A DNA stretch of 56,577 nucleotides, the filler included, from Dimargaris cristalligena (taxonomy: Eukaryota): assembly GCA_003614675.1 (NCBI GenBank). It is 2 parts of 2 records of this genome, joined end to end, with 100 filler letters (N's around TTAATTAATTAA, not from the genome) between each part and the next. Parts side by side here need not be neighbours in the genome. Positions count along the whole stretch, not along the records: positions 1 to 28,276 come from ML002502.1; 1 more part is not named here. One strand, written 5' to 3'. The translations under genes and the position numbers were made by a program. Positions within the stretch are counted from its first letter, which is position 1. The number at the start of each line of letters is the position of its first letter. Of this stretch, positions 3,482 through 30,431 are shown piece by piece. A model generated the notes under the pieces. That model saw only the letters and a program-made list of their open reading frames with translations, did not search any database and was not told where the DNA came from.

Positions 3482-4206
3482 CATAGGTGCCCATATACCA
3501 TCATTACCCCCTATTTGTGTTCCTTACTAATTAGTACCGGTCTAGACCATCTCTGATGTTGTATTCTTAAAAAACCTACGCGCATGGACTCCGGTTTGGT
3601 ATTTAAGTGTTTAACCACCATGTCAGAGTTTTTGATTATATGCCTAAGCTGGATCTCTCCCAAACCATCGTGGCTCACACATTCAGCTGGAAAAACAGGC
3701 CATGGACTTCCCCACTTAATGCCCGATTGATAAACCCTAAAGTTAAAAGCACTATGCCATCGGTCAGTTTGGGCAGGACGCCATTCGTTATCTGGGCATA
3801 TCCGTGACTTGTTTACTTGGGCCAGATAACTACACCGAAGGGGATATCATCAGCTAAGTGTATTTTTAATGCTCGATAAACGATGCCTTTGGCTACTAAG
3901 TGGCTGTTCAGCCGCTTGAAGTAAGTCGTGAATAATAACACTGCTTGCTTCGCAAAAGGCATAAGCGCATAAATGGCCTTGATTAAGGATAGACTACACC
4001 AATGGCATAGCCCACGTGCCAACCCAATTATCACGTTCAATCTTGAAGACCCCATAGTAAAGTGGTCCAAAACACACAAGAATCCGAAGAATACATCAGC
4101 TGAAATAAGTAACTCACCCAAATTTATTAATAATAGGACTTTCTCCTCTGAAGAGTGGGAGGAATGAGCGATCAATACAGTCTTTTTGCATTTCACCAAC
4201 TCATAA
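3482..4206 (+). pseudogene. Possible decayed secreted-protein gene, convergent with F-box gene copy 1
   Basis: TATAAATA near 3373. Hydrophobic leader-like relic RCPYTIITPYLCSLLISTG. ORFs 3607-3807 and 3973-4167 are in the same frame, separated by in-frame stops. The 3' end (SEEWEE*AINTVFLHFTNS*) aligns with SEGYEELAINAAVLHFTL* on the minus strand at about 16625-16690. Confidence 0.3.
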
Positions 4207-4445
4207 ATCAACAATTGTAACTCTTAGATATTAAATATATACTGTGAGAAGTGACCCAGAGTATCTGGTAATCACCAACTTAAAAGTTTATTGATATGGA
4301 ACAGTAGTGGGAAGATAAAAATAGTGAAAATATCGTTGGATAGAGCCGGAACATGGGTAGGTTTTGGTATTATGCAGTAGAAACCCTGTAAGTTCCACCA
4401 GGTTGCATCCAGTCGTCGTCATCTTCATCGTCAAATAGTGCGGAT

Positions 4446-6220
4446 TTAAATATCGTGGGGGGAGGCTCCGTTTTTTTTGTACTTTGGTTGGTTTCTCACT
4501 AATTCTAGTTGATATTCAAGCTCGCTATGAGGTAGCCATCCCTCATTGAGCTTCTCGAGTTTGTTGGCCTTGATTAATTCATTGACCGTCTCGCGGTGGA
4601 CTCGGATGGCCAACTTGGGCTTTCCAAGGGAGTCGCGACGGAAGTGGACAAACCCACCAGCAGTCCAATCAACTAGAAGACCGAAGTCCCATACTTCGCT
4701 CGGATCCTGCGCATTACACTTTTTCTCGGCCGTTGTGAATCCCAATGTACCGGCATAACGGCAGTCATACCCGAATGTGTAGTTTCGTTGGTCCTCTGGA
4801 TCGGTGAAGTACTTGTCGAAGTCCCAATGCAATAGAGTCACGTACGGTTTTAATGCCAAGTAAGTAAATGGGCGATGCTCCTCAAGCAATCTCTCCAACT
4901 CCCTTAAAATGGGGAATTGGTCGATTGTGGCAAGAATCGTGCAGATACCGACTATCATGTGCCATTCGAGGGAATTTTTATACTCTATAACCGATGTTGT
5001 CCCGAGATGTTCCTCATTATGAAGCTCACTCGGTAAGTCTTCAGCCGGCATACTATCAGTGTATAATAGTGTCTTCCGAACTAGCTCGATAGTAGACACC
5101 CCGGGCCCCACTTCCAAGAAATACAACGCAGGGAATAATACACGCTTATAGGCGCTGCTTAATCCAGCATAGTCCAGATAATCCCATTCCGCCTTGATTA
5201 TCTCAAGTTTTACTAGATTCCGCCAAAGTAATCTTGGTTTCCTCTAAAGCCCTCTGGACTCTCTCAAACCTACTCTCGGCTCTCATGATCTCCTTGGAAT
5301 ATTTCGATCCAGAGCGCTAGGCCAATTGCTGGAGTCGTAGGGATCACTTCATCTATACGAAGTCCCCCAGTGCTAACCCACTTGGCGGCCGTGAGTGCAT
5401 CCATCGACTGCATCGGAAAAAGGGTTTTCAACTTTGTTAGGTCTAAGGACTTTATATTGGATATCAAATTGCCGAACTTTTTAACCATCTTTTCAACAGT
5501 AGACAATCCAGGATTCAATGCAGGCCAGCAACATATAGTGATTAAAAATGGGGATCAGTCGATGGGGGTAGGAATGGAATCGACATGGGTGAAATTCGAC
5601 CAGGTAGTATAATGCTCTAAATGAAACTTGTATGGAAACATAGGCGGAGTATTGATTTGCAACCAGGAGTGTTTGCCTCCTTCTACGGATATTTTGTTAT
5701 ACAGACCAGTTGAGCCTCTCCCATTTGCAAGTATCTGGATCACACGCGTGCACTTGGAAAGCGCACCATCAAAATAGAGAACACCCCACAGATTATGGTA
5801 GACTAAATGACAGAGTGACCTGTGAATTGTTTCGGATAAAACCGGTAGACTTACTTTGAAAATGTTCGTTCTAACTGTACCGTCTTTGCCGCTAAAATAT
5901 AAATGGCGATCGGTCTCCGATAAGCGCAAAAGGCTATCTATATCTAATTTACTATAAATTTGTTGGTGAATCTCATAGGGAAGTTTTGCAAGCTGATAGC
6001 CAGGGGTATCTTGAGGACGCTTAACTTGGATGGGAGTTTCGACCTGCATACCACTGCTAAGAGGAATTGAATTGGGATCATCGCCAGGTTGGTATTCAGC
6101 TTCATTTAATGTGATACCCCGGTCTACAGAACAGCACGCGCCCATAGGTTGGGGGCGGGAAGCAGCGCTGTGGGCTAGGGCCAGGGTTAACAGAGTGACA
6201 GGAACAAAGTACGGCTTCAT
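4446..6220 (-). pseudogene. Secreted F-box protein gene, copy 1 (exon 1 6220-5855, intron 5854-5489, exon 2 5488-4446), apparently with two frameshifts at about 5330-5195
   Basis: Signal peptide MKPYFVPVTLLTLALAHSAAS. F-box motif LAKLPYEIHQQIYSKLDIDSLLRLSETDRHL. GTAAGT donor, CTGAT branch point, ~70 nt AG-free zone and a phase-0 AAG acceptor. Exon 2 needs three reading frames to join MVKKFGN..., ...RALEETKITLAES and ...IKAEWDYLDY...LYFLEV. TATATAAG about 185 nt upstream of the ATG. Confidence 0.75.
5587..5722. mobile_element. MITE-like element, copy B, inserted in the intron of F-box gene copy 1
   Basis: ACAT|GGGTGAAATTCGACCAGGTAGTATAA ... TTATACAGACCAGTTGAGCCTCTCCC|ATTT. Absent from the paralogous intron. 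The intron length difference (366-226 = 140) equals 136 bp plus a 4-bp duplication. Confidence 0.85.
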
Positions 6221-7516
6221 TGTCGATAGGCAAAAATAAAGGAGGGGGGTTGGAAAGAACAGGGAAGTCAAGAGTAAGCAATTCTTGGCAGTCGAAGACG
6301 GCTGGGAAGCGCAAAGCAGCAAAAGGGAAGTTGAATGCTTGCTGGAATATGGTGGGTTGGGAGTAGGCGGTAGGAAATAAATATGAGGGGGAAATGGCTG
6401 GCTTATATATCGGGGACGGGCGTCAGAGGGGAGTGTACAGGTGAGCAAGGAGAGAGAGAAAGAGAGGGGGAGATGTGCAGGGAAAATGCATCTACGCCTG
6501 CCGGGAATAGTAAAGGCCGGAATCAACCTTGGCCTTTGCCATCCCAAGGAAAATATGGACCACGGATATTCAACACTCACATGTACCTTGCAAACGAGAA
6601 TTGGGGACCTTCCACCAAAAGAAGCCGGAAGGTGTTCCCGGTCTATGCCATTGGGCCAGGTCGCCTGTTCGTTTGTTAACATATATCCTTTTATACGAAG
6701 CAAATCCCACCGCGATGGCCACAGGCTGCAGCTAACAAGCCCTGCGTTTTTATGTAGCGCAGCCCTGTGTAGTGAACAGCATCATATCCCCTCGTTGTCT
6801 TTTCAACTTAGTATCCCGCTTTGTTGGGAAGCTAGCATTCGGAAAATATCCCGCAGCACATGGGAGCCCGATCATTCGCCTCGTTATTCAACTCAAGCCA
6901 CCCGAAAATAGAGGAAAAAGGGTCCAAAAGATCAAAAGAACAGCTAGCCAATGCGACTACTGGGGACAGTGCTTGGCACTTATTTATTTTAATCTTTGGT
7001 TATTGTAGGTTGGCACGAACTTCAAACCATGAATTCATGACCAGTGTTTTTTGGTGTGACTGTCCAACGAGTACCCTATTCTATTAGACCTTCGGCACGC
7101 TGCTTTCCAGCTGTGGCTGAGGCTGTCCAAAGGAGGGGAAGAATAGAGAGTGTGTGTTTACATCTACCTACCTAACCTACCCACGGCCACCGCTTCCATG
7201 GATATCCGGCGTCTTACGTATTTCCTGCCTTAGTCGACCTTTCAACCTATTCCTCAAGGTGGTCGAGTGATCCTTACCATCGAGTGTTCAAGTCCATGGC
7301 TATGATGGGCTACTCTTTCTCATTACCACATACCTTTTCGACCTCTATATACTTGCCAACAAGTACTGCCCATAGCCGCAAGGCACCACCAAAAGTAGCA
7401 AAGTATAGAAATTAAACATATCGAATGATATTCCTATGCCACCCATTCCGATAGTTCGGAAAAACAAGGAGACCCCCCATGCACCAAACATACCATTAGG
7501 GACTCTTGTCGAATAT

Positions 7517-7664
7517 AGGAGTAGTTGTCCGACCAGACGGCATAACGAAAAATCCGTTGGATAAGGCAAAAGCATTACTCCTAACTAAAAACCAATCGAT
7601 CATCTCTGCCAGCCCACATGCATAATATGTGTAAAACCTTTTACAGCTGGGTCAATTTACACCC
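7517..7664. mobile_element. MITE-like element, copy C, at the inner boundary of the left duplication arm
   Basis: ATAT|AGGAGTAGTTGTCCGACCAGACGGCATAACGAAAAATCCGTTGGAT ... TTACAGCTGGGTCAATTTACACCC|AGGT. Confidence 0.65.
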
Positions 7665-7784
7665 AGGTGTACATTATAGCTCAACCTCATTGTTTGCAGT
7701 TACACTCCATTCCTACCCGATTTCTCTAACTCTTGCTTACAAGCATTGTCACTTTTTGGAATAGCCGAACCCACCAAAACAGTC

Positions 7785-9165
7785 ATGTCGGCCGATCGTA
7801 CCAATGCATACAAGTCCCAATCTGTGAGTAGCTCATTTTCCCACCCAAAATCTCCCTCGCCAAGGGTCATTTCCAGCCCCGGGTGCGATTCAAGCAGTCG
7901 CCTTGTGAGATAGCCGCTGCGTCTTTTGAACCCCATCGGCCCTGCCGGTAACTAATGTCCAAAAATACACATACCTTCCTGCCAATTAAATACAGAATGA
8001 TACTAGCTTCCGCCGAACCTGGGATCGGGATGAGTTCGAGAAACGAGCCCGGGAGCGAAGTCGCCTCGAAAGACAGGCCGAAGAGGACGAGGACCGCAAA
8101 CGGAAAGGTACGATGTTCGCCAATGTATTCTCATTCGTATACGTTTCCACAATCGCCTCTCTGCCTAATGTGAAGTGACCCCCGCCCTTAAATTTATCCA
8201 CTTTGTCAGCTTTCTTATATCAACCGATTGTTCGGATGCATTCGCTTACCGTGTTTCCTGTATCACTGCATTAACAGGCCTGCCCCCGTTGGAGCGCCGG
8301 CGGCCCGATGAGCGTACACCAGACCGCACACTACTAAAAGCCCGCGAGGGAAAGATGGATTTCGAGTCCGCCCTCGGCAAAACCCAAGTCGCTCATATTG
8401 CTGGAACTTCGTCTCAACAGCCGGGCTTTTACTGCAAGGAGTGTGACTGTGTACTTAAGGACAGCACCGCCTTCCTAGACCATGTCAACGGCAAAAAGCA
8501 TCAGCGTAATTTGGGAATGTCCATGAAGGTTGAGCGCAGCACACTTGAGCAGGTTCGGGCCCGGTTACAGATGCTCAAGGCCCGGAAAAAAGTCACCCAG
8601 TCGGAATATAGTAAGTTGACTACTGTGGGGCTAGTCTTTATCCAGTGGTGACCTGTTCTCTTGTGACTGTCGTATCGAACACACCTTTCCCTAATCCTTG
8701 ACTATTTGGATACTTGGGCTAAAGCGACGCCGTACTTCGCTCATCTGCTTAGCCATTCTGACCCATGAACACTCGAATTTATACTCGGTTTTTATCCCAT
8801 ATTCTTTTTCTCCCATTTTCAACCAATAGACATCGAAGAGCGGCTGGCTGACCTTCGGCAGCAAAGAGTAGACGATAAAAAACGACGGCAGGAGAAAAAG
8901 TGGGAAAAGAAAGCTCGGGCGGTCCAGGAGCCCACGTCCAGTATCGGTGCCGTCGATCCTGATATGGCCGCGCTCATGGGGTACGTTAGCTTTCATACTC
9001 GAACCTATAGGCGTGCTGAGATTGGGGGATTGCGTGACAATTCTGTTACAATATATAATTGATTTACCTAGTACTAATTTTAATGTATTCATCTGCTGGT
9101 TATTGCTGTTGTTTTTCACTATTTAACATCATAGGTTTTCTGGATTTGGTACATCCAAAAAATAG
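7785..9165 (+). CDS. SNU23: U4/U6.U5 tri-snRNP zinc-finger protein Snu23/ZMAT2; exons 7785-7823, 7996-8107, 8278-8610, 8830-8980, 9135-9165
   Basis: Spliced translation MSADRTNAYKSQS-NDTSFRRTWDRDEFEKRA...GFYCKECDCVLKDSTAFLDHVNGKKHQRNLGMSMKVERSTLEQV...DMAALMGFSGFGTSKK*. All junctions are GT-AG and in phase. Confidence 0.93.
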
Positions 9166-9802
9166 TATCCTATAAACTTGCACTGTATTGTATATCTCGA
9201 GAATGGTCTGACCTTAATCCTGGTGCTGAGTAGGATTTGTTGCTAAAATCAAATAAATATTACCAATGTAATTCCCCTTCTCAAGAATTGATAAAATGCC
9301 AAAGCAGCCACCATCATGAGAGTCATGTGACTTAAATACCCTATAGTGGGTTAGCACACTTGTTTGTCCTACCTTTATTTACCCAATTCGTTGTGAGGGG
9401 GGAAATTATCGTTTATTGAGGCAGTTTACTTGGGGGACCTGGAGGGGAAACAAGGCTTCGCCAAAAGGGGAAGCTCGCGTTGGCATTCTATCGACTGTAT
9501 ATAGTGTCCCCCATTCGTTCATTCGTTCATTAGTTCATTTCTCCGTTCCTCGGTTCATTTCGACGCATTTTCGCCGTGCATCACCCACTAGTGCGTTTCC
9601 GATCGTAGGCCACGGCTCAGTTATTGACCACGCCTTACCACCCCCCACCCTCTTCAAAGTGTTTCGAATACGCTCGGCCGCAGGCCTCCCCCCATTGACC
9701 GTCTGCAGCCTTCCTGCCAGTCGCTACCTTTTACCTTTCCGCCAGCCTCGGCGACTTTTCCCGAATCGCCCGCGCGCCTTCAGTCATTCTCCCCTTCGAA
9801 CC

Positions 9803-12319
9803 ATGCGGTGGTACTTGGATATTATCACCACCCCCGGGCCCGAAACCGCCCAGACAGCGGTGATGGTGCACCTACCCAAAGAACGTTACCTGTTTAACTG
9901 TCCCGAGGGGTTGCAGCGAGTCTGCTACGAAAACCGCCACCGCATGTTCAAGCTTAACCACCTTTTCCTGACCCGCGTCGACTGGGCTTCCATGGGGGGC
10001 CTGCCAGGTATGCTGTTGACTATCGGGGACCAAAGTTCCGCCGTCGTTAATTTGGGTGCGGGTCCCAATTTCTCCCATTTCATGGCTGCCATGCGGTCCT
10101 TTATTAACCGGCCCGGGTTTCCGGTCAAAATCACCGAATTTGACGATGCGGGGCCCCAGCCTGTCGAACCCTACGTAGGGGAACAGCTTACAGTCGTGCC
10201 CGTGCTTAGCTACCCTGCCTCTGCCGATTCTGTTATCCGAGAGGAACCAACCGAGTCCACCACCGAAGATGATTCGACTTCGGACCGTGCTACTAAACGG
10301 TGTCGTCTGGCCGGCTCTAACTCCATTCCCCCTAGTTCCAGCGACCGCTTAGCCCCGATTAACGAAATTGTCCGCATGATGTTTAACCGTGATCCTAATG
10401 CCGCCGGCCGCCGGTACTACCCTTCACTTCTACCCACGTCCCCTCGCCCGGCCGCCCTAACTTACATTTGTACGGGCCCCAGCGTCCCCGGTAAATTCGA
10501 CGTCAAAGCTGCGGAAGCCCTGGGGGTCCCGAAAGGCCGTCTCCGGGGCCAGCTGGTACGCGGGGAAACCATTGTCTTACCCGACGGTACCGTTATTTCC
10601 CCCGATCAGTGCGTGCACCCCGGTCGACCGGGTGCGGTGTTCATCGTTTGCGATTGTCCGAGTGTAGCCTATATCGACTCCCTCATCAAACAACCGGGCT
10701 TCAAGCCGTACTACCGCGATGACTCGACGCACGTGACTTCCGATCGGTCGGTTGACTGCCTGATTCACAATACCGGTCCGGGGGTATTACAGGATCCCCG
10801 CTATCAGGCTTGGATGCACCGGTTTGGAGCCGAAACCCACCACCTAGTCTCGGGGGCCGACGTTAACGACGATGCCATTGTGTTCACCGGCAGCGCCGAG
10901 GAGCAGCTGGTGCTGAGCAACCTAAGCTCCAATGTATTCCATGGTCCGTTCCAGGCCGTGAAGCCCGGCTCCAGTTCGACAACCTGGGCCGCCCTCCAAC
11001 CCCAATTACCGGCCAAGAGTTGCTTACTACGTCCCGAGACGCGGTTCGAATTCGAACCCACCCCGGTTTGCCATACCGAAAACCAGATCCAACCCTATAA
11101 TTATCAGATGCAGGATCGGGTGTCGTCGATTAGCGAACTGATCCAGCCCTTCCAATCTAAAGTGGCTGAACTCCGGGAGGCCCAGCTCATCCAGTCTCCG
11201 AAACGGGACGCGAAGGCCGCTGACATCGCCCCCGATGCCTTCGAAAACCTAGTGATCTCGCCCTTGGGCACCGGTTCCTCACACCCATCCAAATACCGTA
11301 ACGTTAGCGCCAACTTAGTCAAAGTACCCACCCGGGGTAATATGCTGCTGGACGTGGGCGAAAACACCATCGGCCAACTCTATCGCCTATTGGGGGACTC
11401 CGCTCGATTCAACCCCATTTTCCAAATGGGGTTCGATGACTTGTTCGCCGACCTACACCTGATTTATATCTCCCATATGCACGCCGATCATCATCTGGGG
11501 CTCCCCAGCATTCTGAACCACTGGTTCCAACGGTCCCAAACCCAGCAGGGCCAGGCCCGCAACTTGACGGTGATTGGACCCCAGGCCCTGCTGACTTGGC
11601 TAACGGAATACAACATGGTTCAGCCCCTGGGCCTGAGTGACCCCAACCTCCACCTCGTTTGTACCGAAGCCCTGTTCCCCAGTGGGTTAAATGCCAATGC
11701 CGAAACGCGGGCTACTTTGCTCGCCCCACTCCGGACCAGTTTGGGCATTACGGATGTCACCGTGTGCCGGGCCATCCACTGTGCCAGTTCCTACTGCGTG
11801 GCCCTGGAGCATGAGCAAGGCTGGAAACTGTCCTATTCCGGTGACACACGACCTAACCCGGCCTTTGTCAGCCTCGGCCGGGACTCTGATCTACTGATCC
11901 ACGAATCCACCCTAGAGGACGCCATGCAAGCCGAGGCTATCGCTAAACGGCACTGCACCACCTCGGAAACCCTCCAAGTGGCCGCGGACATGAACGCCCG
12001 CTATACTTTGCTGACCCACTTTTCCCAGCGCTACCCGCGGGCACCCGTGTTCCTAAACGGCGGGCCCAGTCCGGCCTATTCCGCTTGTGATCCGGAGGGC
12101 TTTGTAGGGATACCATCAGTGGGCCCGAGTGCCGCTATTGCGGCGGCCAACCTTAAATTGGCAATCGACTCCCCCCGCGTGGGAGTGGCCTTTGATTTGA
12201 TGAGTGTTCGCATGGGTGATTTTCCGCAACTCGCCACTTTTATTCCCGCCCTCAAAATGCTTCACCCGAATATCGAGGGTGAGGCGGTGGAAGATGTCCA
12301 TATTGACCTTGGTATTTAA
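9803..12319 (+). CDS. TRZ1: tRNase Z long form (ELAC2/Trz1); first ATG at 9803, possible GTG-initiated extension from 9659
   Basis: Motifs RYLFNCPEGLQR, GKFD...LGVPKG (flexible arm), LGTGSSHPSKYRNVS, ISHMHADHHLG, SYSGDTRP, HEST and LTHFSQRYP. Intronless. Confidence 0.95.
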   Translation: MRWYLDIITTPGPETAQTAVMVHLPKERYLFNCPEGLQRVCYENRHRMFKLNHLFLTRVDWASMGGLPGMLLTIGDQSSAVVNLGAGPNFSHFMAAMRSFINRPGFPVKITEFDDAGPQPVEPYVGEQLTVVPVLSYPASADSVIREEPTESTTEDDSTSDRATKRCRLAGSNSIPPSSSDRLAPINEIVRMMFNRDPNAAGRRYYPSLLPTSPRPAALTYICTGPSVPGKFDVKAAEALGVPKGRLRGQLVRGETIVLPDGTVISPDQCVHPGRPGAVFIVCDCPSVAYIDSLIKQPGFKPYYRDDSTHVTSDRSVDCLIHNTGPGVLQDPRYQAWMHRFGAETHHLVSGADVNDDAIVFTGSAEEQLVLSNLSSNVFHGPFQAVKPGSSSTTWAALQPQLPAKSCLLRPETRFEFEPTPVCHTENQIQPYNYQMQDRVSSISELIQPFQSKVAELREAQLIQSPKRDAKAADIAPDAFENLVISPLGTGSSHPSKYRNVSANLVKVPTRGNMLLDVGENTIGQLYRLLGDSARFNPIFQMGFDDLFADLHLIYISHMHADHHLGLPSILNHWFQRSQTQQGQARNLTVIGPQALLTWLTEYNMVQPLGLSDPNLHLVCTEALFPSGLNANAETRATLLAPLRTSLGITDVTVCRAIHCASSYCVALEHEQGWKLSYSGDTRPNPAFVSLGRDSDLLIHESTLEDAMQAEAIAKRHCTTSETLQVAADMNARYTLLTHFSQRYPRAPVFLNGGPSPAYSACDPEGFVGIPSVGPSAAIAAANLKLAIDSPRVGVAFDLMSVRMGDFPQLATFIPALKMLHPNIEGEAVEDVHIDLGI

Positions 12320-13169
12320 TTTACATTGTACCCCTATATTGTGGGTAGGTGTAGTATCCGGAATTCAGCTCATTCTGAGTTAATGTAAGCCATTTGTTTA
12401 TGCAATCAGCTGGCGTTAAACAAATTATAGTGCGATGACAACTGGCTGATTTGGCGGGTGTTTTTTTTATAAAAAAATTGATATGGGTATATCCATTCTA
12501 CCCGCTTAGTATAATTTAACTTGTCAACCATATCAGTCGACGCGCAGCTGCTATCAGCCCATAACTATTCCTTGAGAAGATACTATTAGATAATAAAACT
12601 TCTATACAGGGCTAGAAAACAACCTCCAAGATAATTCCGCTAATGTTATATCCCGCTGAGTTATTCGAATTTTGGTGTGTGCACTCGTCCATAATCTCCC
12701 CATTACTAGGAACGTCGAATAAAACCACCGCCATCCATTTGTGGTTAAATGGGGCGCTCCCTTCAGATGAATATAGCTCAATAGGTACCCGGCGCACTCC
12801 AGTAGAATTATCCAACTATGGATTTTTAGGGAAAATATGGGTAGATAAATCCATGGGCTGTCATATTCACCGCTTACAACTGTGGAGAACATCTAGTTAT
12901 ATTTTGCATATTACATCCCAATCGCGCGTTCCACCCTTCTTGCATTTTGTGGGCCAAGACCAGTGTATATTAGCGCAATGTGGTCGTTGGATATTGCACG
13001 GGGATATTTTTGTTATAATTGATGTATATACCGGCCAAAGCACTCGGGAATGGGATACTACTTACTCTGGCCTACCAACTCGTCGCCTATGGCTAAAGCA
13101 CTTTGAGTATAAAAACTAGCAGTCAACATTAAGGATTTTAGTAGCGACCCCTAAATTGAGCCCTCTAGG

Positions 13170-13203
13170 TTCGATAGGGGTGGGCACTCTCACCCCTATC
13201 GAA
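13170..13203. other. Perfect 13-bp inverted repeat (hairpin) with an 8-nt loop
   Basis: TTCGATAGGGGTG-GGCACTCT-CACCCCTATCGAA. Confidence 0.8.
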
Positions 13204-13381
13204 GTCGTTGGTTTGTATTTGATGCGCCGCGGTATAGAATAGTTTAGTAACGGATGTCTTCATTTGGTACACGCTCTGCCCAATTTCACAATGAGAGGTC
13301 TTTTGGTGGAGGTGGGTTTTGCGAGTAGAAAATGGATATCTTGATCACTCTCACACTGGCCTGTTATTAAAATCTTAATAT

Positions 13382-13529
13382 GGGTGAACGGTGACCAAGT
13401 TCTGTATAAGGTTTTACACAAATTATGTGTTTGGGTAAATATGCGGGGGATTCTTTTTTAGTTAGTAGCATCACTTTTGCCTTATCCAACGGATTTTTCG
13501 TTATGCCGTCTGGTCGGACAACTACTCCT
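13382..13529. mobile_element. MITE-like element, copy D, at the inner boundary of the right duplication arm
   Basis: ATAT|GGGTGAACGGTGACCAAGTTCTGTATAA ... TTATGCCGTCTGGTCGGACAACTACTCCT|ATAT, with ATAT on both sides. Confidence 0.7.
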
Positions 13530-14824
13530 ATATTCGACAAGAGTCCCTAATGGTATGTTTGGTGCATGGGGGGTCTCCTTGTTTTTCCGAACTATCGGAA
13601 TGGGTGGAATAGGAATATCATTCGATGTTTAATTTCTATACTTTGCTACTTCTGGTGGTGCCTTGCGGCTATGGGCAGTACTTGTTGGCAAGTATATAGA
13701 GGTCGAAAAGGCATGTGGTAACGAGAACGAGAAGCTCAGAATAACTGTACACTTGAATACTCGATGGCAAGGGCCACTCGCCCACCCTGCAAAATGGGTT
13801 GCGGGATCGACTGCCTTGCTAAACGACAAAGGCCGGAAATACATAAGACACCGGATATCCATTGGAGCGGGGGCCGTGGGTAGGTAGGTGGATGGAGACT
13901 CTCTCTCTCTATGCTCCCCCTCCTTCGAACAGTCACTCCAACAAACTGGTCATGAAGTCATGGCCTGAAATTCGTGTCAACCTATAATAGCCACAAATAA
14001 AAATAACCAAGCGCTGTGCCCAGCTATCGCATTGGCTGGCCAGAATCTTTTGGTATTTTGGATCCTCTTCCCTCCATCTTGGGGTGGTTTAAGTTCAACG
14101 AGGCCGATGATCGGCGCCCCATGAGCAGCGGATATCTCCTCCATTTTGAGGTGGTTTGGGTTGAATAGCGAGGCGAAGGATCGGGCTCCTACGTACAGCG
14201 GATATTCTCCGAATGCTGGCTTCCCAGCCAATCGGAATACCAAGTTGAAAAGGCAACGAGGGGAGTTGCTGCTGCTTACTGCACAGAGCTACGCCTAATA
14301 GAATCGCTGGGTTTATAGGCCGCAGCTTGTGGCCATCGCGGTAGGAATAGCCCTATATTAAAGGATCCCTGTTAACAGAGTGATAGATGACTCGACCCAA
14401 TGGCATAGATCGGGAACACCTCCCCGATTCTTTTGGTGGAACGGTCCCCAATTCTCGTTTGCAAGGCACCTGTAAATATTGTATACCCGTAGTCCATAAT
14501 TTCCTTGGAATGGCGAGGGCCAAGGCTGCTTACGGCCTTTACTTTTCCCGGCAGGCGCAGGTGCTATTCTTCCTGCCCGTATCTCTCTCTCTCCTTGCTC
14601 GCCTGCACTCTCCCCTCTGGCGCCCGTCCCCAATATATAAACCGGCCATTTCCCCCCCATATTAATTACATACACCACCTACCCCCAACCCACCATATTC
14701 CAGCCGACATTCGACTTCCCTTTTGTTACTTTGCGCCTCACAGCTGTCTTCGACCGCCAAGTTTTGCTCGCCGTTATCCGCCCTTTTCATTCCAACCCTC
14801 CTCCTGGATTGTCGCCTATCGACG

Positions 14825-16402
14825 ATGAAGCCGTACTTTGTTCCTGTCACTCTGTTAAGCCTGGCCCTGGCCCACAGTGCTGTCGGCCGCCCCCAGCCCA
14901 CTGGCGTAGACCCTTCGGAAAATGAAGTCAATACTGCCGCAGATCAATATCAATCGGGCGATATTTCCAAGGCAATTCCTCTTAGCAGTGGCACGCAGGC
15001 CGAAGCTTCCTTCGAAAATGGGGGTACTCATGGTAACCCCCGTTATAAGTTTGCAACTCTTCCCCAAGAAATTCGCGAAGGCATCTATAGAAACATGGAT
15101 GTAAATAGCCTTTTGCACTTATCAGAAACCAATCGGTAATTTAACAAAAACGTCAAAACCGATCCAAACAAGCGGGAATCTATAGAAGTAAGTCTACCGG
15201 GTTTATCCGATACGCTCCGCCGGTCACTCTACCTTTCAGCACACTATCATCCGTGCCGGAATCTCTAATTTGATTATGCGCTTTTGAATTCCAAGCATGT
15301 GTTCCAGATATTTGTATATCAAATCCATTTCTACCCCCATCGACTAATCCCCGTTTTTAATCACTACATGTTGCTGACCTGCACCAATTCCCGGATTGTC
15401 TACTGCTGAAAAGATGGCTAAAACCATGGTTAAAAGCGTCGACAATGTGATATCGAATCCCGGCCCCTTGAATATGAAGGGAATGAACACCCTTCTTCCG
15501 ATGCAGTCGACGGATGCATTCAGGGTCAAAAACTGGCTTGGAGAAATGCGCGTTTTTTAGAATGGGATAAGGCTCGAGGAATTTTCGGAGGAATCTAAGG
15601 TAGCTATGGCGAAAATCGAAGCGGAATGGGAGTATTTGGACTACACTGGATTAAACAGCGACCAGAAGCGTGTACCATTTCCTGCATTATATTTCTTGGA
15701 AGTGCAGCCTGAGAAGTCTATTATCAAGTTATTCGATAAGATAATATCTTTTTTATCTCTTGACAGCCCGCCGGCCTATGGCCCTGAGAACGATGTTCTT
15801 AATGAAGAGCAGCCCGAACTTATATCGGAATCTGACCTCAAACTCATTCTCAAATGACAAATGATAGTTAGCATATTTGCGGTCCTTGCCACGATCGGCA
15901 AATTTACCATTTTGATCGAATTGCTGGAGTTGGTTGAGCAGCATTCTCCAGATTTGTCCGAAGTGTTACAAGCGTACGCGACGTTATTGCATTGGCAATA
16001 TTACAATCCCATCGATTATCCAGAGATTCAAAAAGACCACGCATTCACGTATGACTGCCGGTATGCTGAGTCATTGGGACTCCCAAAGGCCATGACTATG
16101 TGCCAATTGAAAGGTACGGGGAAAAACGGGTCCCCAATATTCTAAATGATTGGACTGCTTGTGGGTATGTATACTTCTCTCTCGGCACCAGTCGCAGCTA
16201 CGATGCCACACCCAAGTTGGCCTTCCGAGTCCATCGCCCGACTGCCAATCCACTAATCGAGGACAACAAACTCGGGGAACTCAATGAGAGTTGGCTACTT
16301 CATAACCATCTTAAAGAACAAGCAGAGTTGGTGAAAAATCAGCCAAGTAACGAAAGTCCAGAGCCTGACCCATACGGTAGTCCATATGGCGGCCCACTTT
16401 GA
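14825..16402 (+). pseudogene. Secreted F-box protein gene, copy 2 (exon 1 14825-15187, intron 15188-15413, exon 2 15414-16402); three nonsense codons and one frameshift
   Basis: Signal peptide MKPYFVPVTLLSLALAHSAVG. F-box motif FATLPQEIREGIYRNMDVNSLLHLSETNR*. In-frame stops TAA at 15137, TAG at 15558 and TGA at 15855 (W in copy 1). Frameshift near 16120. Motifs shared with copy 1: AEW.YLDY, FPALYFLEV, YDCRYA..LG, DWTA.G.V.F, PKLA.RVHR, NKL..LNE.WL.H. Confidence 0.85.
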
Positions 16403-17005
16403 TGACGACTTCGACTGATTGCAGCCTGATGGAACTTACAAATTTTCTACTGAATAAAACCAAACCCTACCCATGACCCGGCTCTATCCAAAGATATTTC
16501 CACTATGTTTATTTTCCCGCTCCCTTCGCACATTAATAAACGTTTAAGGTTATGTTTATCCGACACTAAGTCACTGCTACTTATGGTATATGTTAAATAT
16601 TTAAGATTTATAAATTTGGAGGTCTTAGAGGGTGAAATGCAAGACTGCTGCATTGATCGCCAATTCCTCATACCCTTCAGACAAAGAAGTGGGTGAAGTT
16701 CAACGCACCTGCGTAGATATCGGCCCCGATCGGTCCGGCGGGAAAGATGGTCAGGGTTTGCTCCGAGTCTATCTGGCCCAGCGAAGTTGTTTTCCGATTT
16801 TTTATGTGGAATGAATACATTCGCTTCATATGCAAAAGCATTCATAAGTGAATTATAACTTAAGGTTAAAAAATATCGGAAGATCATAAGTGGGATCTTT
16901 ATTATAATGTTAAAGGGGTATGTGAAACTCCATGAATAACGCTAGACCGAATCGTACAATGCATACAGAGAGGACTCAGGAAGACACGTAAAAAAGGGGT
17001 TATAT

Positions 17006-27986: not shown

Positions 27987-28275
27987 GTAAGTGTCGGAAT
28001 ATATCACACCAGACCAGACCAAGGGGAATTACAGACCCGATGGATCTTGGCGTTGGTCGTATATGTTTATGGACCTGGGTATCTCTTAAATGTAATTTAC
28101 CTATCATCATGGATAGTACAAAGCTGAACCGAGATTCTCATTCATTCTCAATATACCACTATATCCTTTGTTTTGTTATTTACATCCTTGTTTCATTGTA
28201 CCATCCCTCCGCTTGTCAGATACCTTCTCCTGTGCAAGGGTTTTATCGTTAGTGTGTACACCGTACCCGGCGTCA

Positions 28276-28376
28276 ANNNNNNNNNNNNNNNNNNNNNNNN
28301 NNNNNNNNNNNNNNNNNNNNTTAATTAATTAANNNNNNNNNNNNNNNNNNNNNNNNNNNNNNNNNNNNNNNNNNNN
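28276..28376. other. Assembly gap with an artificial TTAATTAATTAA spacer
   Basis: N-runs flank TTAATTAATTAA (28321-28332), which places stop codons in all frames. Confidence 0.95.
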
Positions 28377-29850
28377 TATAATAATAGAAAAAACAATATA
28401 GTAATGAAAATGGAGGAAAAATGACTATACTTGTCAGGGGCAGGGGCTCATTCACTTGTCAGGGGCATACTTCTGATAAGTGCGAAAAATGGATTAAAAA
28501 TAAAAGTAGGTAAAAAATGTGGTAAGTTTACCACAGGAACATTCAGTACTTGAGGGTTGGGGATTCCTGCAGGACGACTGGGGGAATCACCAGACTGGTC
28601 CTGAGGACATCCTGGTGACCTGGGCCTGGGAATTGGTGCCGCCAAAGTTTGTAGTTCTTGGGGAGGTGGCACAACAAAAATTATTACAATGTTGGGTAAT
28701 ATAAATAGTAATAAAATAAAAATATAAAAGAAATAATACCCTTGGGTACTCGAAAATAACTAAAACCTAATCAAACCTCCACAGAAGTGCTACTGGGTGA
28801 ATTCTTCAGCCTTAACTAAAAAGGTGTGTTTATTAATAAGATATTCCACTGAGTATTTATACTAAAACTTGGGGATTATAAAATGATTCATACTAAGGAC
28901 TAAAGAACTAAATTCAGACTAATGGTAAGAGATAATAAAAGGGTTAGACCCATTTGTATAACCAAAACAAAACTAAAGACAAGGGTCTTTGAACTATAAC
29001 ATTGGTTTTACATGGTAAACTATTTGTTAGTATCATCAAAACAATGGTAAAGAAGGGAACTTTGAACTAATAATTGGCTAGGGCTAAAGTTATACCCATT
29101 GGTATAACTAAAACAAAGGTATAAATGATATAAATAAACTTATAATAGGTTAAAGGAATAACTGATACTCATTGATAGAGTACAGTAAGGGTATAAATGT
29201 GATACTTGGAATAGTAATCCAATCAAAAATATACATATAATCATTGTATAATAATAATAACTTATCAAAGGGAAAACTTAGGCTAGCAGTACCAATTCCT
29301 TGACTAATTTCCTAATTATACATGGTGGTTTCAATAAAAGAGGAGAAATAAATAGGACAATATCAAATACTACTATAGCTATTTGGCTACATTACAACAA
29401 TGGTTGTTGTGACAGGTACTGAACACCTTTAAGTTTTGGTGATGTCACTGACAATGTACCTCATAACCATTAATCAAATTATCACCTTTTTACTATATTT
29501 AGTTTAGTTTATCAATTTTAATATTATATTATATCCATATTCATCTATTACTTTATATATCATTTGTGCAGCCTATTTCCCTTTTATCTTAAGTATTCAA
29601 TAGCAGAACTGGTGTAGATATAATTATCCATTATGCCTACAGTTCTTCGACTATTTCGGACTATTGATTATTATTTACTAGTGTCTAGGTATTTTTCGCT
29701 ATTCTATAGCTATTGGGACTTTTTATTTATTTCGCTTCATCAAGTTTTTCCCATCACTGTACAAAAAAAAAACTTAAAATAATTAAGCTTTATAAACTAA
29801 TCAGTAATCATGTGATTTGATGAAAAATTTCAGAAATTTCGGCTAGAGCT
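28377..29850. mobile_element. AT-rich, CpG-depleted degenerate sequence; possible silenced transposon relic
   Basis: No CG dinucleotide seen from 28753 to 29647, no long ORF, and it abuts the assembly gap. The family is not identifiable. Confidence 0.4.
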
Positions 29851-30431
29851 CAGACAAGCCATATTATACTAAGGGTTACTTCTGGGTTGCAACATTCTAT
29901 TAACTAATATTTCTTGGCCATACCGTTTGACTGTTGGGCCATTTAAACCGTTGACTATTTTATTATATGGTTATAGTCGATATTACTCAGTATATAGCTG
30001 TGGCAGCCGATTAATAAAAATTTGCAGGAAAATACTAGCGAAACACCACCCAGTTGTATTGCAACATGAGTGCGATCACTTTAAGGAAATGGCAGTGTAT
30101 GTCTAGCTTTTATTGTTACAAACTAACCCATATAATAGACGCTTTATTATATTGCTAGGTTGAATTCCACCAGCGTTTTCCTCAAGGCCACTCCCGCCCG
30201 TGTACTATATGCATTGGTGATTCATCCCATATACAGTGCTCTGATTTGTCTTAGTGATGGACATTTTATAGGTAATTACAAAGAAACAGTCAAGGGTGCT
30301 TCAACACCACAATTGCCAATGACTTACAAGGATACAGAATCGTATGATATAGGAGGGGTGCATTTCAATCTCTCATAATAGACATTGGTGCCTTCCGGGG
30401 CATTGTCCCGCCACTGTTAATCCGCCCAGCG

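Follow-up and report, generated by a model that had tools for sequence, protein, structure and literature searches.

Two related loci in a 56,577-nucleotide (nt) stretch of the Dimargaris cristalligena genome (assembly GCA_003614675.1), hereafter the window, are decayed paralogues, or pseudogenes, of a multigene family that was seen only in D. cristalligena among the proteins searched. As far as their sequences indicate, the intact members of this family comprise a signal-like start, a disordered and variable linker, a divergent F-box and a mostly helical, novel C-terminal domain. The best single explanation of this arrangement is that the intact paralogues encode F-box effectors delivered into a host, a reading to which we assign a probability of about 0.4. 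A previous, sequence-only reading of the window had proposed this role for the two loci themselves. The architecture, the existence of intact paralogues and the mycoparasitic source organism partly support that proposal for the family, but not for the window loci, which are pseudogenes: the role proposed for intact members is no longer possible for them, and they record birth-and-death turnover in the family.

Disrupted loci and their intact paralogues

The two loci have the extents previously assigned to them. Copy 1 runs along the minus strand from an ATG at 6220 to a stop codon at 4446-4448, and copy 2 along the plus strand from an ATG at 14825 to a stop codon at 16400-16402. Exon 1 of copy 1 (5855-6220) is intact and consists of an open frame of 122 codons that covers the signal-like start, the linker and the F-box-like motif; its translation is 97% identical to the annotated protein P0001. 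Exon 2 is disrupted by two frameshifts. Its first part (5273-5494, delimited by tblastn frames and three-frame translation) continues the frame of exon 1 and meets a stop at 5270-5272, and the C-terminal domain (4446-5198, including the stop at 4446-4448) is read in a different frame, within an open reading frame spanning 4446-5243. One frameshift is a 19-nt insertion relative to copy 2 at about 5199-5217 (placement ambiguous by 1 nt), which introduces stop triplets and shifts the frame; the second, into the third frame, must fall within 5273-5316 according to the three-frame translation. The sequence just upstream of the insertion lies in this third frame and abuts the continuous frame of copy 2, and 14 of 20 residues encoded just downstream of it are identical to copy 2. 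Splicing out the disruption was considered and rejected. Ten GT..AG candidates join both frames and just one of these has a GTRNGT-type donor; this candidate, of 41 nt, displays no branch-site consensus by eye, and splicing it would bring into use a frame that lacks homology, the match to copy 2 being in the third frame.

Copy 2 carries four disabling lesions. Its first exon (14825-15187, plus strand) encodes a signal-like start and an F-box-like motif (15050-15136) interrupted by an in-frame TAA at 15137-15139, while exon 2 (15414-16402) is interrupted by two more stops in frame, one at 15558-15560 and one at 15855-15857, and shifts frame between 16106 and 16136, as located from open reading frames and from tblastn with P0023 and P0019. 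These lesions, like those of copy 1, had gone unmentioned when the loci were first presented as a pair of paralogues. They are real and not assembly errors. Four DNA runs were compared over positions 4000-17000, X5 covering the whole stretch and X1-X3 covering copy 1 fully and copy 2 partly, and none of the four reports an insertion or deletion at the lesion sites, with X5 alone spanning both copies throughout. X5, which derives from a second study, leaves the stops of copy 2 unchanged and shows an extra lesion in copy 1, a 2-bp deletion at 4953 that falls within the conserved C-terminal domain. Six substitutions that separate X5 from the window in copy 1 are listed, and each of them is non-synonymous; eight further X5 differences over 4000-17000 lie outside that list. 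Between the two annotated assemblies, the part encoded by copy 1 exon 1 differs at 4 of 122 residues, and no difference is seen over the 480 residues of the intact paralogue pair P0023/P0002 or the 449 of P0019/P0005. This pattern indicates that constraint has been lost at the copy 1 locus and kept at the intact paralogues. The annotated models of the two window loci stay open only by skipping conserved sequence: those of copy 1 are P0001 (321 residues, flagged LOW QUALITY, with a 9-nt pseudo-intron) and P0028 (324 residues), and that of copy 2 is P0013 (190 residues). The most that copy 1 could encode is a truncated product of about 197 residues, containing the signal and the F-box and lacking the C-terminal domain.

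The family to which these loci belong was defined with the 265-residue C-terminal frame of copy 1, which retrieved 16 representatives at an E value of 0.001 or below among 1,835,955,588 proteins, all 16 named as Dimargaris cristalligena. A profile search of a 5.8-billion-protein set returned three members, all known, and the N-terminal 40 residues of P0026 gave no score against the same set, which is word-indexed and so does not demonstrate absence. Full-length models of 442-481 residues are annotated in two assemblies, and thus intact paralogues of the window loci exist. The conserved N-terminus was identified at nine of the 16 loci (copy 1, copy 2, P0023, P0019, P0018, P0007, P0016, P0025 and P0026), and eight of these nine also possess a P.E-type F-box-like motif at the aligned place, so that the joining of signal and F-box, first noted in the two window copies, extends across the family. 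The models at the remaining seven loci begin inside or after the middle region, and many family members sit on contigs of 3-8 kb. A separate observation concerns P0021, a 528-residue model of one assembly that lies outside the window and fuses an upstream small protein with its own signal-like start (P0022, 126 residues in the other assembly) to P0016 (442 residues, with the usual family start), as if two genes with signals stood in tandem.

Modules of the encoded proteins

The N-terminus of copy 1 is MKPYFVPVTLLTLALAHSAAS followed by RPQP, and its signal-peptide-like segment comprises codons 1-21 (6158-6220, minus strand), as delimited by heuristic features and by conservation across loci. 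Both copies start MKPYFVPVTLL.LALAHSA.. and then RPQP, with K at position 2 and small residues at -3 and -1 before RP, and their hydrophobic core reaches a maximum 10-residue Kyte-Doolittle mean of 2.2. By these heuristic features a signal-like segment, originally described as a secretion signal, is present in both copies. The same properties extend to all nine family N-termini. Position 2 is K or R throughout, the highest 10-residue mean is 1.8-2.5, and a conserved [RH]P is preceded by A, V, T or L at position -3 and by S or G at position -1; averaged over 19 residues, hydrophobicity is 0.96-1.49, low for a membrane span. The von Heijne rule describes a signal peptide as a positively charged n-region and a hydrophobic h-region, 7-15 residues long, with small residues occupying -3 and -1. 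All nine N-termini conform to these features of a cleavable Sec-type signal, as judged by this hand rule and not by a trained predictor. Over 28 pairs from eight loci, mean pairwise identity is also highest in the N-terminus, at 53%; it is 17% in the linker, 31% in the F-box and 32% in the C-terminal domain. At the DNA level, the signal segments of copies 1 and 2 agree at 56 of 63 nt, which bears out an earlier remark that they are almost identical in comparison with a coding body of 65-73% identity. The upstream non-coding DNA is, however, also 80-86% identical, and because flanking non-coding DNA is about equally conserved, the conservation of the signal DNA is not specific evidence for effectors.

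A second methionine follows the signal closely in copy 1, where Met26 precedes GACCS (6130-6145, codons 26-31); the equivalent in P0023 is residues 27-32. Among the nine signal-bearing loci, Met-GACCS is found in copy 1 and P0023/P0002 alone, and we take the GACCS to resemble an N-myristoylation and palmitoylation motif.

The linker of copy 1 (codons 22-76; 5993-6157, minus strand), which was delimited by identity to copy 2 and the family alignment, is polar and acidic, variable, and 55 residues long, close to the previous estimate of about 60. Between copies 1 and 2 it displays 65% DNA identity and a ratio of non-synonymous to synonymous substitution rates (dN/dS) of 0.88 over codons 22-72, and the equivalent residues of P0023 are modelled by AlphaFold with a predicted local distance difference test (pLDDT) below 50. 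A Q-[PS]-[GNS]-[DG] motif recurs about 20 residues past the predicted cleavage site in six of the nine loci (at 6086-6097 in copy 1, for example), in a linker that is otherwise unalignable.

The F-box-like motif of copy 1 occupies codons 77-108 (5897-5992, minus strand), as located by sub-threshold Pfam matches and the family alignment; the shorter motif first singled out in the sequence corresponds to codons 77-105 (5906-5992). This motif had been described as a clear F-box. A homologous motif is indeed present in both copies, but it does not attain the Pfam cut-off in either, being sub-threshold in copy 1 and without any match to a Pfam F-box hidden Markov model in copy 2. The best match of copy 1 is to F-box-like (20.5 bits, E value 4e-4, cut-off 24.3), followed by F-box (15.7 bits, E value 0.014, cut-off 20.5) and F-box_4 (E value 0.028). 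Within the family, P0019/P0005 pass the PF00646 cut-off (24.9-25.0 bits, cut-off 20.5), P0025 (17.2 bits, cut-off 24.3), P0018 (13.6 bits, cut-off 20.5) and P0007 (12.0 bits, cut-off 20.5) are sub-threshold, and P0023/P0002, P0016/P0021 and P0026 have, like copy 2, no Pfam F-box match. All sub-threshold matches fall at the homologous position, the family alignment shows no variation at the P and the E of the L-P-x-E core, and six loci, P0023 and P0021 among them, bear the UniProt name "F-box domain-containing". Between the window copies the dN/dS of the motif is 0.55, compared with 0.88 for the linker. In a search of PDB sequences with the family profile A2, two of the four matches were isolated Skp2 F-box chains; family profile A3 and P0005 gave no match in the PDB sequences. 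AlphaFold modelled codons 71-122 of copy 1 (52 residues) with a pLDDT of 70.7 and helices at residues 12-21 and 24-43, and the F-box region of the P0023 model has a pLDDT of 54-63. Homology of this motif to F-boxes is likely. Since the signal and the motif are encoded in one uninterrupted exon, their fusion is independent of any splice model.

The C-terminal region is encoded separately, in a second exon, as had been proposed for a stretch of about 330 residues that resembled nothing recognised: the GTAAGT donors are conserved, and homology resumes at 5494 in copy 1 and at 15414 in copy 2. Intron 1 of copy 1 is placed at 5495-5854 (minus strand), with a GTAAGT donor at 5854 and an AAAAG acceptor before the ATG at 5494, where homology to residues 130-173 of P0019 picks up again; in copy 2 the GTAAGT donor lies at 15188. 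The two copies show conservation around both donor and acceptor. About 140 nt of the copy 1 intron (5587-5728) are missing from copy 2 (140 gap columns), and part of this stretch, 5685-5728, has matches on further contigs of the DNA runs; 5587-5728 looks like a small dispersed repeat inserted into the intron.

The C-terminal domain, of approximately 250-300 residues in intact members, belongs to no known family. In copy 1 it is 51% identical to residues 185-429 of P0023 (tblastn), and the family is marked by two conserved blocks, C.YAG.LGF..A..KC and G.PKLAIRVRRS. The C-terminal region of no member matched a Pfam family, and no leucine-rich repeat (LRR), ankyrin or other Pfam repeat family was identified in any family member. 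The AlphaFold model of P0023 has an overall pLDDT of 54.6, with the C-terminal domain at 70-89, mostly helical and with one small hairpin. A Foldseek search of this model gave a best PDB match with an E value of 0.39, and the ESM Atlas yielded no usable match.

Possible roles of the intact members

F-box proteins ordinarily act in the cytosol or the nucleus. If the signal and the F-box both work, the F-box would be placed where the producing cell has no Skp1, and the simplest use for it would then lie in a host. Dimargaritales parasitise Mucoromycota and some Ascomycota by means of an appressorium and a haustorium (PMC9866270), and the fit with a haustorial, mycoparasitic lifestyle suggested by the sequence-only reading holds. 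In the host-delivered effector model, the protein would enter the secretory pathway and lose its signal before the conserved [RH]P, would be released at the haustorial interface and would then reach the cytoplasm of the host fungus. There the F-box would bind host Skp1, and the C-terminal domain would bring host proteins to the host Skp1-cullin-F-box (SCF) ligase for ubiquitination. Because Skp1 is highly conserved among fungi, compatibility with the host Skp1 would be expected. The full version of this account, in which some 16 loci encode a family of adaptors delivered through the haustorium, with an F-box that docks on host Skp1 and a C-terminal domain that picks host proteins for destruction, is more tentative than the effector model as such.

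Several observations weigh against the effector model. The Pfam F-box cut-off is reached at one of the nine loci, with four sub-threshold and four without a match. The Skp2 F-box chains retrieved from the PDB by profile A2 have E values of 0.57 and 1.7, which are not significant, and the 52-residue model of copy 1 gave no Foldseek match. The signal-peptide call is made by hand rules only, and the second Met right after the signal in copy 1 and P0023 makes a signal-less isoform possible. The N-terminally short models at seven of the 16 loci could reflect decay or faulty gene prediction. Unlike many fungal effectors, the proteins are cysteine-poor and, at about 450-480 residues, large, and we know of no route from the Dimargaris haustorium into the host cytoplasm.

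The same F-box scores, mostly below cut-off, together with the non-significant PDB profile matches and the lack of a fold match, are what would be expected if the family is secreted or enters the secretory pathway but its F-box-like stretch is a diverged helical remnant that does not bind Skp1. Their site of action would then lie outside the cytoplasm of the host, for example at the haustorial interface or the cell wall, with the C-terminal domain as the active part. That the signal-like N-terminus is the best conserved segment also favours this reading. The retention of the invariant P and E and of the hydrophobic spacing at eight of nine loci argues for an F-box that is still in use, as do the one locus above the curated cut-off, the six UniProt names and the lower dN/dS of the motif than of the linker between the window copies. 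We regard a non-binding remnant as unlikely on balance, if a serious contender.

A functional F-box acting inside Dimargaris itself is a weaker candidate, and a doubtful one. Here the N-terminus would be an uncleaved membrane anchor that keeps the F-box facing the cytosol, or translation would begin at a downstream start (Met26 in copy 1 and P0023) to give a cytosolic form; the outcome would be a membrane-tethered SCF adaptor of the parasite, in line with the cytosolic or nuclear site where F-box proteins are usually found. The uncharged stretch is 19 residues long in seven of the nine loci (14 in P0016 and 25 in P0007) and is followed by R or H and proline, as an anchor might be, and Met26-Gly can be read off the sequences of copy 1 and P0023. 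However, the 19-residue mean hydrophobicity is lower than expected of a transmembrane helix, the basic residue at position 2 and the small residues at -3 and -1 fit a cleaved signal with the C-terminal side translocated, and the Met26-Gly motif is absent from the other seven signal-bearing loci.

Least probable, and by our estimate improbable, is that the whole family is decaying or non-functional, its "intact" models being gene-prediction products whose signal and F-box have no present function: both window copies are broken, models P0001 and P0013 skip conserved sequence, seven of 16 loci have short models and many members occupy small contigs, yet P0023/P0002 and P0019/P0005 are full length and identical in two independently annotated assemblies, in contrast with the differences accumulated in copy 1 exon 1, and the conserved blocks persist across paralogues that are just ~30% identical.

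Genomic setting and comparison with known systems

The two window copies lie in the arms of an inverted duplication. The left arm (4138-7654, minus strand) holds copy 1 with about 1.4 kb of upstream and 0.3 kb of downstream DNA, and the right arm (13392-16690, plus strand) holds copy 2. A repeat search resolves the 3.5-kb arms into 18 inverted pairs; blastn identity is 74-88%, and a MAFFT alignment of arm against arm gives 75% identity overall. The synonymous divergence (dS) between copies 1 and 2 is approximately 0.5. The inverted duplication is old. Repeat-induced point mutation was ruled out as a source of the divergence, with transitions and transversions at 449:358 and normal dinucleotide and repeat-induced point mutation indices. 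The upstream non-coding DNA (6221-7654 versus 13392-14824) is 80-86% identical between the arms, above the 65-73% of the coding body, and includes a block of 96% identity (7420-7597 and 13449-13626). This conserved segment contains no tRNA and no Rfam match; gene conversion close to the palindrome centre could account for its similarity between the arms, as could a regulatory element that has been conserved. A 40-nt element present in both arms (7532-7571 and 13475-13514) recurs elsewhere in the genome, and short contigs match this element alone, with unrelated sequence on both sides. The arms flank a zinc-finger gene and a tRNase Z gene, and the remaining genes of the window are housekeeping genes, encoding RIC1, a pentatricopeptide repeat (PPR) protein, cactin, a proteasome subunit and IF-2. 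The region from 28000 to 30000 is AT-rich (GC content 29-34%), and the two 44-nt runs of N at 28277-28320 and 28333-28376 mark the joint between the two parts of the window.

In comparison with cellular F-box proteins (PF00646/PF12937), the family has in common the L-P-x-E-[IL] motif and the hydrophobic spacing. Cellular F-box proteins lack an N-terminal secretion signal, whereas the D. cristalligena proteins have a signal-like start, and copy 1 and most paralogues score below the PF00646/PF12937 cut-offs, with P0019/P0005 passing PF00646. If the effector model is correct, a cellular module would have become an effector simply by gain of a signal peptide.

Hijacking of the host SCF ligase by F-box mimicry is also known in viruses, and Legionella AnkB and Agrobacterium VirF are among its bacterial F-box effectors. 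Such hijacking is documented for bacteria and one insect (PMC7330099, PMC4617103); a bacterial instance is Ralstonia RipG/GALA (RipG7), a pathogen-made F-box adaptor that joins the host SCF ligase. The bacterial effectors differ from the D. cristalligena family in that they are delivered by type III or type IV systems, compared with a putative Sec-type signal here, and in that they are of prokaryotic origin and carry LRR or ankyrin substrate-binding parts, repeats for which no family member gave a Pfam match.

The closest eukaryotic analogue identified is the SSGP-71 family of the Hessian fly, Mayetiola destructor. SSGP-71 effector genes encode signal peptides (PMC7330099), and their products are described as having an N-terminal F-box and LRRs, as forming a large, diversifying multigene family, and as binding wheat Skp1-like proteins through the F-box (PMC7330099, PMC4617103). 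The two systems share a eukaryotic parasite, a signal joined to an F-box and a large multigene family; they differ in that LRRs follow the F-box in SSGP-71, while the C-terminal domain of the D. cristalligena proteins matches no family or fold. In addition, the host of SSGP-71 is a plant and that of D. cristalligena a fungus, and delivery and Skp1 binding of the SSGP-71 type are predictions for the latter.

Among the publications listed by the literature searches, none described a secreted F-box effector from a fungus, none linked Dimargaris with the F-box and none dealt with effectors of haustorial mycoparasites of Zoopagomycota. The scarcity of material on pathogenicity roles of eukaryotic F-box proteins is itself remarked upon in a passage of PMC8146833. 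For the window itself the result is a modest one, two dead copies. If the effector model holds for the intact members, they would be the first family of F-box effectors from a fungus, and the first directed by one fungus against another, and would add a new substrate-recognition domain to the SCF repertoire, and if they are secreted and bind host Skp1 they would provide a concrete molecular handle on fungus-fungus biotrophy. Relative to the known systems, what is new in this family is a predicted Sec-type signal in a fungus, a presumed fungal target and a novel C-terminal domain.

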